Part shown: positions 13,955 to 27,973 of the stretch, piece after piece
Numbering within the stretch: the first letter of the stretch is position 1
Layout of the letters: every line of letters starts with the position of its first letter
Source: a virus
Lineage: Duplodnaviria > Heunggongvirae > Uroviricota > Caudoviricetes
Length of the DNA: 27,973 nucleotides
Virus record (IMG/VR): IMGVR_UViG_2531839664_000024
Direction: 5' to 3' (one strand)
Made by a program: the position numbers and the translations under genes
Notes under the pieces: generated by a model
The model's database searches: none
Seen by the model: the letters and a program-made list of their open reading frames with translations, nothing else
Told to the model about the DNA's origin: nothing

Positions 13955-16508
13955 ACCGGTAGGCGATCTGGTCGTTGATTTGAGTCTGGATGCGGCCAGA
14001 TTTGACGAGCAGATGGCCAGAGTCAGGCGTCATTTTTCCGGTACGGAAAGTGATGCGAAAAAAACAGCGGCAGTCGTTGAACAGTCGCTGAGCCGACAGG
14101 CGCTGGCTGCACAGAAAGCGGGGATTTCCGTCGGGCAGTATAAAGCCGCCATGCGTATGCTGCCTGCACAGTTCACCGACGTGGCCACGCAGCTTGCAGG
14201 CGGGCAAAGTCCGTGGCTGATCCTGCTGCAACAGGGGGGGCAGGTGAAGGACTCCTTCGGCGGGATGATCCCCATGTTCAGGGGGCTTGCCGGTGCGATC
14301 ACCCTGCCGATGGTGGGGGCCACCTCGCTGGCGGTGGCGACCGGTGCGCTGGCGTATGCCTGGTATCAGGGCAACTCAACCCTGTCCGATTTCAACAAAA
14401 CGCTGGTCCTTTCCGGCAATCAGGCGGGACTGACGGCAGATCGTATGCTGGTCCTGTCCAGAGCCGGGCAGGCGGCAGGGCTGACGTTTAACCAGACCAG
14501 CGAGTCACTCAGCGCACTGGTTAAGGCGGGGGTAAGCGGTGAGGCTCAGATTGCGTCCATCAGCCAGAGTGTGGCGCGTTTCTCCTCTGCATCCGGCGTG
14601 GAGGTGGACAAGGTCGCTGAAGCCTTCGGGAAGCTGACCACAGACCCGACGTCGGGGCTGACGGCGATGGCACGCCAGTTCCATAACGTGACGGCGGAGC
14701 AGATTGCGTATGTTGCTCAGTTGCAGCGTTCCGGCGATGAAGCCGGGGCATTGCAGGCGGCGAACGAGGCCGCAACGAAAGGGTTTGATGACCAGACCCG
14801 CCGCCTGAAAGAGAACATGGGCACGCTGGAGACCTGGGCAGACAGGACTGCGCGGGCATTCAAATCCATGTGGGATGCGGTGCTGGATATTGGTCGTCCT
14901 GATACCGCGCAGGAGATGCTGATTAAGGCAGAGGTTGCGTTTAAGAAAGCAGACGACATCTGGAATCTGCGCAAGGATGATTATTTTGTTAACGATGAAG
15001 CGCGGGCGCGTTACTGGGATGATCGTGAAAAGGCCCGTCTTGCGCTTGAAGCCGCCCGAAAGAAGGCTGAGCAGCAGACTCAACAGGACAAAAATGCGCA
15101 GCAGCAGAGCGATACCGAAGCGTCACGGCTGAAATATACCGAAGAGGCGCAGAAGGCTTACGAACGGCTGCAGACGCCGCTGGAGAAATATACCGCCCGT
15201 CAGGAAGAACTGAACAAGGCACTGAAAGACGGGAAAATCCTGCAGGCGGATTACAACACGCTGATGGCGGCGGCGAAAAAGGATTATGAAGCGACGCTGA
15301 AAAAGCCGAAACAGTCCGGCGTGAAGGTGTCTGCGGGCGATCGTCAGGAAGACAGTGCTCATGCTGCCCTGCTGACGCTTCAGGCAGAACTCCGGACGCT
15401 GGAGAAGCATGCCGGAGCAAATGAGAAAATCAGCCAGCAGCGCCGGGATTTGTGGAAGGCGGAGAGTCAGTTCGCGGTACTGGAGGAGGCGGCGCAACGT
15501 CGCCAGCTGTCTGCACAGGAGAAATCCCTGCTGGCGCATAAAGATGAGACGCTGGAGTACAAACGCCAGCTGGCTGCACTTGGCGACAAGGTTACGTATC
15601 AGGAGCGCCTGAACGCGCTGGCGCAGCAGGCGGATAAATTCGCACAGCAGCAACGGGCAAAACGGGCCGCCATTGATGCGAAAAGCCGGGGGCTGACTGA
15701 CCGGCAGGCAGAACGGGAAGCCACGGAACAGCGCCTGAAGGAACAGTATGGCGATAATCCGCTGGCGCTGAATAACGTCATGTCAGAGCAGAAAAAGACC
15801 TGGGCGGCTGAAGACCAGCTTCGCGGGAACTGGATGGCAGGCCTCAGGTCCGGCTGGAGCGAGTGGGAAGAGAGCGCCACGGACAGTATGTCGCAGGTAA
15901 AAAGTGCAGCCACGCAGACCTTTGATGGTATTGCACAGAATATGGCGGCGATGCTGACCGGCAGTGAGCAGAACTGGCGCAGCTTCACCCGTTCCGTGCT
16001 GTCCATGATGACAGAAATTCTGCTTAAGCAGGCAATGGTGGGGATTGTCGGGAGTATCGGCAGCGCCATTGGCGGGGCTGTTGGTGGCGGCGCATCCGCG
16101 TCAGGCGGTACAGCCATTCAGGCCGCTGCGGCGAAATTCCATTTTGCAACCGGAGGATTTACGGGAACCGGCGGCAAATATGAGCCAGCGGGGATTGTTC
16201 ACCGTGGTGAGTTTGTCTTCACGAAGGAGGCAACCAGCCGGATTGGCGTGGGGAATCTTTACCGGCTGATGCGCGGCTATGCCACCGGCGGTTATGTCGG
16301 TACACCGGGCAGCATGGCAGACAGCCGGTCGCAGGCGTCCGGGACGTTTGAGCAGAATAACCATGTGGTGATTAACAACGACGGCACGAACGGGCAGATA
16401 GGTCCGGCTGCTCTGAAGGCGGTGTATGACATGGCCCGCAAGGGTGCCCGTGATGAAATTCAGACACAGATGCGTGATGGTGGCCTGTTCTCCGGAGGTG
16501 GACGATGA
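13947..16508 (+). CDS. H: Tail tape measure protein H (853 aa)
   Basis: Long coiled-coil-rich ORF with a C-terminal Gly-rich region, in canonical position. Confidence 0.95.
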   Translation: MAEPVGDLVVDLSLDAARFDEQMARVRRHFSGTESDAKKTAAVVEQSLSRQALAAQKAGISVGQYKAAMRMLPAQFTDVATQLAGGQSPWLILLQQGGQVKDSFGGMIPMFRGLAGAITLPMVGATSLAVATGALAYAWYQGNSTLSDFNKTLVLSGNQAGLTADRMLVLSRAGQAAGLTFNQTSESLSALVKAGVSGEAQIASISQSVARFSSASGVEVDKVAEAFGKLTTDPTSGLTAMARQFHNVTAEQIAYVAQLQRSGDEAGALQAANEAATKGFDDQTRRLKENMGTLETWADRTARAFKSMWDAVLDIGRPDTAQEMLIKAEVAFKKADDIWNLRKDDYFVNDEARARYWDDREKARLALEAARKKAEQQTQQDKNAQQQSDTEASRLKYTEEAQKAYERLQTPLEKYTARQEELNKALKDGKILQADYNTLMAAAKKDYEATLKKPKQSGVKVSAGDRQEDSAHAALLTLQAELRTLEKHAGANEKISQQRRDLWKAESQFAVLEEAAQRRQLSAQEKSLLAHKDETLEYKRQLAALGDKVTYQERLNALAQQADKFAQQQRAKRAAIDAKSRGLTDRQAEREATEQRLKEQYGDNPLALNNVMSEQKKTWAAEDQLRGNWMAGLRSGWSEWEESATDSMSQVKSAATQTFDGIAQNMAAMLTGSEQNWRSFTRSVLSMMTEILLKQAMVGIVGSIGSAIGGAVGGGASASGGTAIQAAAAKFHFATGGFTGTGGKYEPAGIVHRGEFVFTKEATSRIGVGNLYRLMRGYATGGYVGTPGSMADSRSQASGTFEQNNHVVINNDGTNGQIGPAALKAVYDMARKGARDEIQTQMRDGGLFSGGGR

Positions 16509-18910: not shown

Positions 18911-23486
<4,576 letters not shown>

Positions 23487-23497
23487 CCACTACATTT

Positions 23498-23585
23498 CCA
23501 GAAAGGCAATCAGTGGGCAGGTAATATCACCGACTGTACGGTGATTGTGACCAAAAAAGCCGCTTCCGGCATCAGTATTCGTTGA
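23498..23585 (+). pseudogene. J: Displaced 3' remnant of J (about 28 codons, ...QKGNQWAGNITDCTVIVTKKAASGISIR-stop) downstream of the IS
   Basis: Removing the IS and one TTT copy restores a continuous J frame ending at TGA 23583-23585. Confidence 0.6.
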
Positions 23586-23654: not shown

Positions 23655-24254
23655 ATGCGTAAACTTTATGCCGCCATTTTGTCCGCAGCCATTTGTCTGG
23701 CCGTATCCGGTGCGCCTGCATGGGCATCTGAACATCAGTCCACGCTGAGCGCGGGGTATCTTCATGCCCGGACCAACGTTCCCGGCAGTGATGATCTGAA
23801 CGGGATTAACGTGAAATACCGTTATGAGTTTACGGATACGCTGGGGCTGGTGACGTCATTCAGCTATGCAGGAGACAGGAATCGCCAGCTGACCCGTTAC
23901 AGCGATACCCGCTGGCATGAAGATTCCGTGCGTAACCGCTGGTTCAGCGTGATGGCGGGGCCGTCTGTGCGCGTGAATGAATGGTTCAGCGCGTATGCGA
24001 TGGCGGGTATGGCTTACAGCCGTGTTTCGACTTTTTCCGGGGATTACCTTCGCGTAACTGACAACAAGGGGAAAACGCACGATGTGCTGACCGGAAGTGA
24101 TGACGGTCGCCACAGCAACACGTCTCTGGCGTGGGGGGCTGGCGTGCAGTTTAACCCGACCGAATCCGTGGCCATTGATATTGCTTATGAAGGTTCTGGC
24201 AGTGGTGACTGGCGCACTGACGGTTTCATCGTGGGTGTCGGTTATAAATTCTGA
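23655..24254 (+). CDS. lom: Outer-membrane beta-barrel protein Lom (Ail/OmpX family), with N-terminal signal peptide
   Basis: Signal peptide MRKLYAAILSAAICLAVSGAPAWA then mature protein; aromatic C-terminal residue (..GYKF); GAGAGG Shine-Dalgarno. Confidence 0.9.
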   Translation: MRKLYAAILSAAICLAVSGAPAWASEHQSTLSAGYLHARTNVPGSDDLNGINVKYRYEFTDTLGLVTSFSYAGDRNRQLTRYSDTRWHEDSVRNRWFSVMAGPSVRVNEWFSAYAMAGMAYSRVSTFSGDYLRVTDNKGKTHDVLTGSDDGRHSNTSLAWGAGVQFNPTESVAIDIAYEGSGSGDWRTDGFIVGVGYKF

Positions 24255-24318: not shown

Positions 24319-27300
24319 ATGGCAGTAAAGATTTCAGGTGTACTGAAAGACGGCACAGGAAAACCGGTACAGAACTGCTCAATCCAGCTGAAAGCAAAAC
24401 GTAACAGCACCACGGTGGTGGTGAACACGCTGGCCTCAGAAAATCCGGATGAAGCCGGGCGTTACAGCATGGACGTTGAGTACGGTCAGTACAGCGTTAT
24501 TCTGTTGGTGGAAGGATTCCCGCCGTCACATGCCGGGACCATCACCGTGTATGAAGATTCCCGACCCGGTACGCTGAATGATTTTCTCGGTGCCATGACG
24601 GAGGATGATGCCCGTCCGGAGGCTCTGCGCCGTTTTGAACTGATGGTGGAAGAGGTGGCGCGTAACGCGTCCGCAGTGGCACAGAACACGGCAGCCGCGA
24701 AGAAGTCAGCCAGTGATGCCAGCACATCTGCCAGTGAGGCGGCAACCCATGCGACTGATGCTGCAGACTCAGCACGCGCAGCCAGCACGTCAGCCGGACA
24801 GGCCGCGACGTCGGCTCAGGAGGCTTTTCCAGCGCAGGAACGGCATCAGCAAAAGCCTCTGAGGCATCAAAAAGTGCTGCCGCTGCAGAGTCCTCAAAAA
24901 GCGCGGCGGCTACCAGTGCCGATGCGGCGAAAACGTCAGAAACGAATGCGGCAGCGTCACAACAATCAGCAGCCACTTCTGCATCCACCGCGACCACGAA
25001 AGCGTCAGAAGCTGCCTCCTCAGCCCGGGATGCGTCGGCTTCAAAAGAGGCGGCAAAATCATCAGAAACGAACGCATCATCAAGCGCCAGTAGTGCCGCT
25101 TCCTCGGCAACGGCGGCAGGAAATTCCGCGAAGGCGGCAAAGACGTCTGAGACAAACGCTAAGTCCTCTGAAACGGCAGCGGAACAGAGTGCCTCAGCTG
25201 CGGCAGGCTCAAAAACAGCGGCTGCATCATCTGCCAGTGCCGCGTCAACAAGTGCCGGGCAGGCCTCAGCCAGTGCCACCGCCGCCGGAAAATCGGCAGA
25301 AAGTGCTGCATCGTCCGCTTCAACAGCCACAACGAAGGCTGGCGAAGCCGCTGTACAGGCCAGCGCAGCAGCGAGGTCTGCTTCCGCAGCGAAGACATCC
25401 GAGACGAACGCGAAAGCGTCGGAAACCAGCGCAGAATCCTCAAAAACGGCTGCCGTATCGTCCGCCAGTTCGGCGGCGTCATCGGCATCATCGGCGTCTG
25501 CTTCAAAAGATGAGGCGACCAGACAGGCGTCAGCAGCGAAGGGCAGCGCCACGACAGCATCCACGAAGGCGACAGAGGCAGCTGGCAGTGCGACGGCGGC
25601 AGCACAGAGCAAAAGTACGGCGGAATCCGCGGCAACGCGCGCCGAGACAGCGGCAAAACGGGCAGAGGATATTGCATCCGCCGTGGCGCTTGAGGATGCG
25701 AGCACGACGAAAAAGGGGATAGTACAGCTCAGCAGTGCGACCAACAGCACTTCCGAGTCACAGGCGGCAACGCCAAAAGCCGTTAAGGCCGCGTATGACC
25801 TGGCTAACGGGAAATACACCGCACAGGATGCAACGACAGCACAGAAAGGGATAATCCAGCTAAGCAGCGCGACCAACAGCACATCTGAAACGCTTGCCGC
25901 GACACCAAAGGCAGTAAAAACAGCCTATGACAATGCTGAGAAACGTCTGCAGAAAGATCAGAACGGTGCGGATATCCCTGGCAAAGACACCTTTACGAAA
26001 AATATTGGTGCCTGCCGTGCCTTCGGTGGGTCAGTAAGCACAACAACAGGAAACTGGACGACTGCACAGTTTATCGAGTGGCTGGATTCTCAGGGAGCAT
26101 TTAACCATCCCTACTGGATGTGCAAGGGTTCCTGGTCTTATGGCAATAATAAAATCATTACTGATACTGACTGCGGTAATATTCATCTCGCCGGAGCTGT
26201 CATTGAAGTAATGGGGATAAAGTCAGCGATGACGATCCGCATTACCACACCGACCACCTCCACTGGTGGTGGAACAACTAACGCCCAGTTTACCTATATT
26301 AATCACGGAACAGATTATTCACCTGGCTGGCGAAGGGACTATAACTCCAGAAATAAGCCAACGGCATCAGAGATCGGGGCGTTACCGTCAGGTGGAACAG
26401 CAGTATCATCAGTTAATCTGTCTTCAAAAGGTCGGGTAACCGCGCTGACAGACAATACGCAGGGGGCAACAGGTCTTGAGTTATACGAGGTGTATAACAA
26501 CGGATATCCAACAGCGTATGGAAATATCATTCACCTGAAAGGGATGACAGCCGTTGGCGAAGGTGAGTTACTCATCGGCTGGAGTGGTACAAGCGGTGCT
26601 CATGCTCCGGCATTTATTCGTTCACGACGGGATACGACCGACGCAAACTGGTCGCCGTGGGCGCAGCTTTACACCTCGGCTCATCCTCCTGCAGAGTTTT
26701 ATCCAGTCGGTGCACCAATCCCGTGGCCATCAGATACCGTTCCGTCTGGTTATGCCCTGATGCACGGGCAGACTTTTGACAAATCTGCCTACCCGAAACT
26801 TGCAGCCGCTTATCCGTCAGGCGTGATCCCTGATATGCGTGGCTGGACGATTAAGGGCAAACCTGCCAGTGGTCGTGCCGTATTGTCTCAGGAACAGGAC
26901 GGCATTAAATCGCACACCCACAGCGCCAGCGCATCCAGTACGGATTTGGGGACGAAAACCACATCGTCGTTTGATTACGGCACTAAATCCACGAATAACA
27001 CCGGGGCTCATACGCACAGTCTGAGCGGCTCTACAAGCTCGGCCGGAGCACACTCGCACGTTGATGGTCGCAGGTTTAATACAAGCACTTTTAAAGACAC
27101 CTATCAGTATGGTTCTACAGCTGTCGGAAGTAACTCATACCAGGTACAAGGGGCGGTTGGTCTGGGCATTGGCACGATGGCGAATACGAACTCTGCTGGC
27201 GCGCATACCCACTCACTGTCCGGCACTGCTGCAAGCGCAGGTGCACACGCACATACTGTCGGTATTGGTGCTCATACGCACTCCGTTGCGATTGGCTCAC

Positions 27301-27389
27301 ATGGACACACCATCACCGTTAACGCTGCTGGTAACGCGGAAAACACCGTCAAAAACATCGCATTTAACTATATTGTGAGGCTTGCATAA
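24319..27389 (+). pseudogene. stf: Side tail fibre gene stf, disrupted by a frameshift at the T-run 24825-24828 (N-terminal part in frame 1, remainder in frame 0)
   Basis: Frame 1 gives a lambda-Stf-like N-terminus up to ...SAQEA; frame 0 from 24828 gives the Ala/Ser-rich repeats, the central domain and the His-rich C-terminus ending [11 protein letters not shown]. Confidence 0.85.
24700..25680 (+). repeat. Imperfect tandem coding repeats within stf (A/S/T-rich units such as [16 protein letters not shown])
   Basis: Recurrent GCN/TCN/AAR codon pattern; region is open in three frames on both strands. Confidence 0.7.
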
Positions 27390-27973
27390 TGGCATTCAGA
27401 ATGAGTGAACAAGCACGGACCATAAAAATTTATAATCTGCTGGCCGGAACTAATGAATTTATTGGTGAAGGTGATGCATATATTCCGCCTCATACAGGTC
27501 TGCCAGCAAACAGTACCGATATTGCACCACCAGATATTCCTGCTGGCTTTGTGGCTGTTTTCAACAGTGATGAGGCATCGTGGCATCTCGTTGAAGACCA
27601 TCGGGGTAAAACGGTTTATGACGTAGCGTCAGGGGACGAGTTATTTATTTCTGAACTCGGTCCGTTACCGGAAAATGTTACCTGGTTATCGCCGGAAGGG
27701 GAGTTTCAGAAGTGGAACGGCACAGCCTGGGTGAAAGATGCAGAAGCAGAAAAACTGTTCCGGATCCGAGAGGCGGAAGAAATAAAAAACAGCCTGATGC
27801 AGGTAGCCAGTGAGCATATTGCGCCACTTCAGGATGCTGTAGATCTGGAAATCGCAACGGAGGAAGAAACCTCATTGCTGGAAGCCTGGAAAAAGTATCG
27901 GGTGTTGCTGAACCGTGTTGATACATCAACTGCACCTGATATTGAGTGGCCTACGAACCCTGTCAGGGAGTAA
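27389..27973 (+). CDS. tfa: Tail fibre assembly chaperone Tfa (194 aa)
   Basis: TAATG overlap with stf stop; lambda Tfa-like sequence; ends at the last base of the window. Confidence 0.9.

Follow-up and report, generated by a model that had tools for sequence, protein, structure and literature searches.

The side tail fibre gene (stf) of the prophage analysed here carries a deletion of a single thymine, which shortens a run of five thymines to four and moves the rest of the gene out of frame. With high confidence we regard this T5 to T4 change as a genuine and clonally inherited loss-of-function mutation, representing one step in the neutral decay of a cryptic prophage and not a regulated event. 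Because the frame is broken by this 1-bp deletion at positions 24825–24828 of the window (the whole stretch of DNA analysed, 27,973 nt), the single continuous reading frame of a functional gene is not present and the window's stf belongs to the lambda Stf family as a pseudogene. Coordinates of the features discussed are given in Table 1.

Table 1. Positions in the window of stf, its lesion and the neighbouring genes.
Feature	Position	Strand	Basis
J tail tip gene, interrupted by an insertion sequence ~90 nt before its natural stop	18911..22236	+	PGAP 'missing C-terminus'; blastn against O43 J
IS3-family insertion sequence, 1258 bp	22237..23494	+	blastn, junction sequences, annotation
lom (Ail/Lom outer membrane protein), upstream neighbour of stf	23655..24254	+	ORF, annotation
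stf side tail fibre pseudogene, 3071 nt	24319..27389	+	ORFs, translation, alignment with O43 RM10042
Correctly read N-terminal 170 codons of stf	24319..24828	+	translation; PF08400 (aa 1-134) lies inside
Lesion TTTT (TTTTT in the intact allele)	24825..24828	+	sole indel in pairwise alignment
True stf frame downstream of the lesion, without a start codon	24828..27389	+	translation; Pfam on 25683-27386
Out-of-frame Arg/Pro/Gln-rich tail, 297 codons and stop	24829..25722	+	translation
tfa tail fibre assembly gene, 194 aa, apparently intact	27389..27973	+	ORF; WP_000885574.1

Translation of the locus reveals where the frame changes. The frame opening at ATG 24319 starts with a lambda-type Stf N-terminus (MAVKISGVLKDGTGKPVQNC) and remains sensible through ...SAQEAF, the last codon of which is TTT at 24826–24828. 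Beyond CCA at 24829 it becomes Arg/Pro/Gln-rich nonsense and runs to a stop at 25722, giving 467 amino acids in total. The -1 frame, which includes 24828, reads SSAGTASAK... and is free of stops until TAA at 27389; the third frame contains many stops. A sequence-only reading of this DNA had earlier placed a frameshift at a short T run within 24811–24835, with the tail fibre sequence resuming in the other frame from 24828, and translation of the two frames bears out both points, the run being the TTTT in the context GAG GCT TTT CCA. That reading had also let the nonsense begin directly after Glu-Ala. The change to Arg/Pro/Gln-rich nonsense is indeed there, but the Phe codon TTT is still authentic stf sequence (the intact protein has EAFSSAGT), and it is everything 3' of the deletion that is shifted into the -1 frame.

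The nature of the lesion is directly observed in comparison with E. coli O43 strain RM10042, where stf is an undivided coding sequence of 3072 nt encoding 1023 aa (WP_089585292.1). Pairwise alignment with this intact allele, a comparison that the sequence-only reading had proposed for defining the indel, reveals eight substitutions and exactly one indel over 3072 nt. The indel is located at the T run, where O43 has GGC TTTTT CC and the window has GGC TTTT CC, and corresponds to stf nt 507–511 (codons 169–171). Since both flanks match the intact gene this closely, the change of frame is not a product of chance. A 1-bp loss or a 2-bp gain had been considered from the letters alone; the alignment retains the loss and discards the gain. 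In the intact gene, the T5 starting at nt 507 is the only run of five or more thymines, and homopolymer runs of at least five number ten. Genomes could be told apart at this run by the sequence pair GAGGCTTTTCCAGC versus GAGGCTTTTTCCAGC.

The O43 gene is part of a prophage at the argU site and shares its locus and neighbours with the window (J, lom, stf, tfa, methyltransferase, hydrolase and ompT), including a tfa product of identical protein accession. It differs from the window in having T5 and a continuous frame of 1023 codons, and the O43 prophage differs further in its intact J and its full set of early and lysis genes. A related stf, with ~94% identity over the full length and a match span of 3072 nt, is found in the phages PhiR26_1 and mEp460_ev081, and there too the run is T5 and the gene is a single frame of intact length.

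Pfam analysis recovers the domains of a lambda-type Stf on both sides of the lesion. The prophage tail fibre N-terminal domain (PF08400) covers residues 1–134, corresponding to the full 134-position profile (E = 1.2e-71), and the downstream frame matches Phage_fiber_2 twice (E = 8.8e-42), Collar (E = 2.8e-12) and Phage_fiber (E = 1.8e-05); the set found in the intact allele is phage_tail_N, two copies of Phage_fiber_2, Collar and Phage_fiber. No Pfam match was found in the 467-aa ORF outside its N-terminal region. The content of the downstream frame is an Ala/Ser-rich shaft, two fibre repeats, a collar domain and a His-rich C-terminal tip, and the C-terminus can be aligned with that of lambda Stf. 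The gene order J–lom–stf–tfa is present in the window, and the tfa protein (WP_000885574.1) is annotated in both E. coli O121 strain RM8352 and O43 RM10042.

Compared with lambda Stf, the gene has a mosaic structure. Alignment is good over the first ~300 aa and over the last ~230 aa, the shaft has ~105 aa of additional Ala/Ser-rich sequence as well as a second GI(V/I)... fibre repeat, and the central ~300 aa ahead of the collar domain align only patchily (mosaic regions at window positions 25200–25520 and 25800–26700). An antisense ORF of 446 aa (24542–25882, minus strand) is located over the Ala/Ser/Thr-rich shaft, as is the 297-aa out-of-frame ORF on the plus strand. Both are probably compositional artefacts of the GCN/TCN/ACN codon periodicity in the shaft. 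In lambda, the annotated orf206b has a comparable antisense position.

The sole translatable product of the window's gene would consist of the N-terminal domain, ~36 more correct residues and then 297 nonsense residues. Devoid of shaft, collar and receptor-binding tip, such a product would make side fibre assembly impossible, and we infer from the analogous frameshift in the stf of lambda PaPa that side fibres would be lost. It is very doubtful that the truncated product, an N-terminal tail-attachment domain with a 297-residue basic tail, has been functionally kept, or that low-level -1 slippage yields a fibre for another resident prophage. The length of the open out-of-frame stretch is not evidence for such retention because the codon periodicity of the Ala/Ser-rich shaft keeps it open.

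Laboratory lambda PaPa raises the question of whether the window's lesion is the PaPa lesion itself, either inherited or recombined in, as each lesion removes one base pair from a short homopolymer run in stf. Alignment of J02459 (lambda PaPa, with orf-401 and orf-314) and KT232076 (a lambda record with an undivided 774-aa stf) reveals two substitutions and one indel in the stf region. The indel changes AAAAG CCCC ACTGG to AAAAG CCC ACTGG at lambda positions 20833–20835 (stf nt 1181–1184, codon ~395). A passage in PMC12617516 that cites Hendrix and Duda 1992 describes an stf frameshift that separates laboratory lambda from Ur-lambda and prevents side fibre synthesis and assembly, and our mapping of the C4 to C3 change agrees with it. 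Protein alignment of lambda Stf with O43 Stf, which is only patchy around this site, puts lambda codon 395 at about 25812–25824 of the window, some 1 kb 3' of the T run. The frame of the window is undisturbed there, with no sign of the PaPa C deletion, while at the site of the window's own lesion lambda encodes EASSGAE and has no T run. The stretch holding the PaPa lesion aligns patchily with the mosaic stf of the window, which also speaks against a transfer, and identity of the two lesions can be dismissed. Because both the site and the base differ, the alignments of J02459, KT232076 and the O43 allele indicate that the two inactivations are independent. The sequence-only reading had reached this view by placing the PaPa lesion much further into the gene; that placement proves correct, and its counter-case, a frame change at the same site as in lambda, is not what the alignments place there.

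The two genes nevertheless have much in common. They belong to the same family and share the synteny J–lom–stf–tfa, and in both the loss of one base pair from a short homopolymer splits stf and leaves the N-terminal domain in frame, with the absence of side fibres as the expected outcome. They differ in the position and base of the deletion (codons 169–171 against codon ~395), in length (1023 aa for the longer, mosaic allele against 774 aa in lambda) and in setting, which is a non-viable cryptic prophage in the window and a plaque-forming laboratory phage in PaPa.

To what extent the four-thymine (T4) allele is shared can be seen from 5,426 complete E. coli genomes. A megablast query of 351 nt (24650–25000) gave nine matches of 351 nt at 100% identity, and a further series of 99.7% matches spanning 352 nt, O43 RM10042 among them. 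A second query of 76 nt centred on the T run matched 248 records, exactly nine of which are 100% identical. The genomes with the T4 allele are RM8352, 2014C-4423, 2014C-3599, 2014C-3655, 2015C-3107, 16-9255, FWSEC0006, 2002-3211 and GTVSS-020; serogroup O121 or O121:H19 is stated in the records of five and no serogroup in those of the other four. The other 51 best-ranked records of the 248 all exceed the length of the 76-nt query by one base or more, as does each of 57 non-O121 records taken at even intervals from the whole ranking. One record of 46 kb spans two extra bases and the other relatives inspected have a single extra base. T4 in other lineages, as expected of a mutational hot spot, was thus not found among these 51 best-ranked and 57 sampled records of the 248. 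The survey covered complete RefSeq genomes, and basal members of the lineage could carry the T5 allele.

In all nine genomes the T4 allele occurs together with the junction of an insertion sequence within J (J::IS, described below), and this junction is found in no other of the complete genomes. Clonal inheritance of the allele is indicated by the identity of the nine assemblies together with this co-segregation with a structural marker. The window itself differs from O121 RM8352 (NZ_CP028110.1, 577823–605795) at three of 27,973 positions, so it comes from a very close relative of RM8352 and not from that strain itself. In RM8352, PGAP annotates an stf coding sequence of identical sequence as 'frameshifted'. 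The three differences, at 11670, 12023 and 12057 (C/T, C/T and C/A), lie within 390 bp in genes annotated as 'phage tail protein' and 'phage minor tail U family protein'. Differences packed this closely may point to a short stretch recombined between resident prophages.

In two large genomes, 2013C-3033 and JNEC-KY171, the 351-nt query matches the first part of an stf at 99.7% identity. They were considered as possible T5 members of the O121 lineage and rejected, as the gene lies in another prophage, next to prfC, encodes 971 aa and is accompanied by a different tfa protein (5670–8585 of the examined segments). Since this stf belongs to a different prophage, the two genomes are uninformative on the timing of the mutation. 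They illustrate the modular swapping of tail fibre parts among prophages.

The frameshift is located in a prophage with other lesions. The window begins with an integrase gene adjoining tRNA-Arg (the intD side), and ompT lies past the end of tfa; this site, from tRNA-Arg to ompT, is the DLP12 attachment site (argU–ompT). At the same site, O43 RM10042 has a prophage with a full lambdoid gene set comprising repressor-like regulators, replication-region genes, the antiterminator gene quuD, a porin gene, essD, rrrD, rzpD, bor and nohD, as well as terminase, head and tail genes. In O121 RM8352, the entire region for immunity, replication, antitermination and lysis is absent. What lies there, with a few genes next to int on one side and the small terminase subunit gene on the other, is an IS3-family element (about 1300–3700 of the window, 14149–16440 of the RM8352 segment) with an annotated 'AL1L pseudoknot' frameshift signal; the corresponding interval in O43 RM10042 holds ~15 kb of early and lysis genes. 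A fimbrial chaperone gene annotated as fimC, in an sfm-like operon beside the attachment site, is 'frameshifted' in O121 RM8352 and intact in O43 RM10042; it lies upstream of the prophage, outside the window (6985–7676 of the RM8352 segment).

The second insertion sequence has interrupted J. Its inverted ends are TGTAGTGG...CCACTACA with a 3-bp TTT target duplication, and its OrfA and its ends may resemble those of IS911. The interrupted J acquires a new end, ...EFKVFVVAH*, in place of its last ~30 residues. The 3' remnant of J is left at 23495–23585, and the translation of a 90-nt fragment within it (23496–23585), FQKGNQWAGNITDCTVIVTKKAASGISIR, matches the C-terminal end displaced from J (FQKGNQGAGNITDCTVIVTKKAASGISIR in O43). 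In RM8352, PGAP labels this fragment 'homoprotocatechuate 2,3-dioxygenase, missing N-terminus'. The label looks like a mis-annotation of the J remnant, because the translated fragment corresponds to the C-terminal end of J.

Judged by its gene content, the prophage is predicted to be unable to regulate itself, to replicate, to lyse its host or to form a normal tail tip. Because the insertion in J and the loss of the early region occur in the same prophage, the stf frameshift is one of at least three inactivating lesions. In its position between the tRNA-Arg/intD site and ompT, and in its decay by IS insertion, deletion and point frameshifts, the window resembles other cryptic lambdoid prophages of the DLP12 type. 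However, it has kept the entire head and tail gene block, which DLP12 of K-12 has lost. In literature on O121:H19 prophages, the titles and abstract openings of the matches listed say nothing about this locus; one of the papers (PMC9397093) reportedly deals with IS excision in O121:H19.

An indel within a homopolymer run is a familiar context for long-read errors, and the gene could in principle be intact with T5 and merely misread or misassembled, a concern that the sequence-only reading had raised. However, the identical T4 allele is present in nine complete genomes, whose strain names suggest several sources, and is confined to them, every other relative inspected having an extra base. A run of four to five bases is also short for a systematic error, and the allele co-segregates perfectly with the J::IS junction, which is an independent structural marker. 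An error of sequencing or assembly is therefore highly improbable. Changes in homopolymer length can also underlie phase variation, in which case the T run would toggle the fibre on and off as a contingency locus. Phase-variable homopolymer tracts typically have 7 or more bases, and the tract here, with four bases in the window and five in relatives, is far below that length. Within the lineage there is no length polymorphism (T4 in 9/9 genomes), and the relatives uniformly have one extra base, save for the 46-kb record with two. The combination of a long tract and polymorphism among close isolates was not found in the nine T4 genomes and the relatives inspected, and phase variation appears exceedingly unlikely.

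A programmed or usefully leaky -1 ribosomal frameshift at C-UUU-U would restore full-length Stf, and the shift needed is indeed -1, for which tRNA-Phe could re-pair from UUU at 24826–28 to UUU at 24825–27. There is no X-XXY-YYZ heptamer in the zero frame, and GCU UUU CCA allows re-pairing of a single tRNA only. In non-pseudoknot folding, the 92 nt that follow are no more stable than shuffled sequences (z = -0.39, with 65 of 200 shuffles at least as good). The GGAGG located 2 nt upstream is made up of the codons CAG GAG GCT (Gln-Glu-Ala), and at this spacing would favour, if anything, a +1 shift, by analogy with prfB; the +1 frame here stops after ~12 codons. Beyond the nine T4 genomes, the two-frame arrangement is absent from every relative inspected, phage records included. 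Thus, none of three features looked for at a programmed -1 site, namely a slippery heptamer, downstream structure and conservation, was found. Moreover, with J disrupted, any fibre produced would be without a working tail. We consider recoding at this site very unlikely.

For the decay of the gene, which is the reading we prefer, the following course can be suggested. Replication slippage, the mechanism we infer, would have deleted one T from the T5 run at codons 169–171, and the 853 codons that follow are out of frame as a result. [quoted passage not shown] Within such a decaying prophage the frameshift would presumably be neutral. It is from the J::IS insertion and the missing immunity, replication and lysis region that we place the frameshift as a step in neutral decay.

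The frameshift of the window's stf is ordinary pseudogenisation and mechanistically nothing new, and the frameshifted coding sequence, already flagged in RefSeq, is a known one; its site is distinct from that of PaPa. The T4 allele and the J::IS junction mark a group of nine genomes, STEC O121 wherever a serogroup is stated, and the pair might serve to identify members of this group. For the mining of receptor-binding proteins from prophages, the missing T needs to be repaired before the stf of the window is used. With this lesion, natural inactivation of a lambda-type stf by a 1-bp homopolymer deletion is on record for a second, independent time. The finding is in keeping with the notion that phages can dispense with side fibres and readily lose them, and that small indels and IS insertions are routes of prophage decay.
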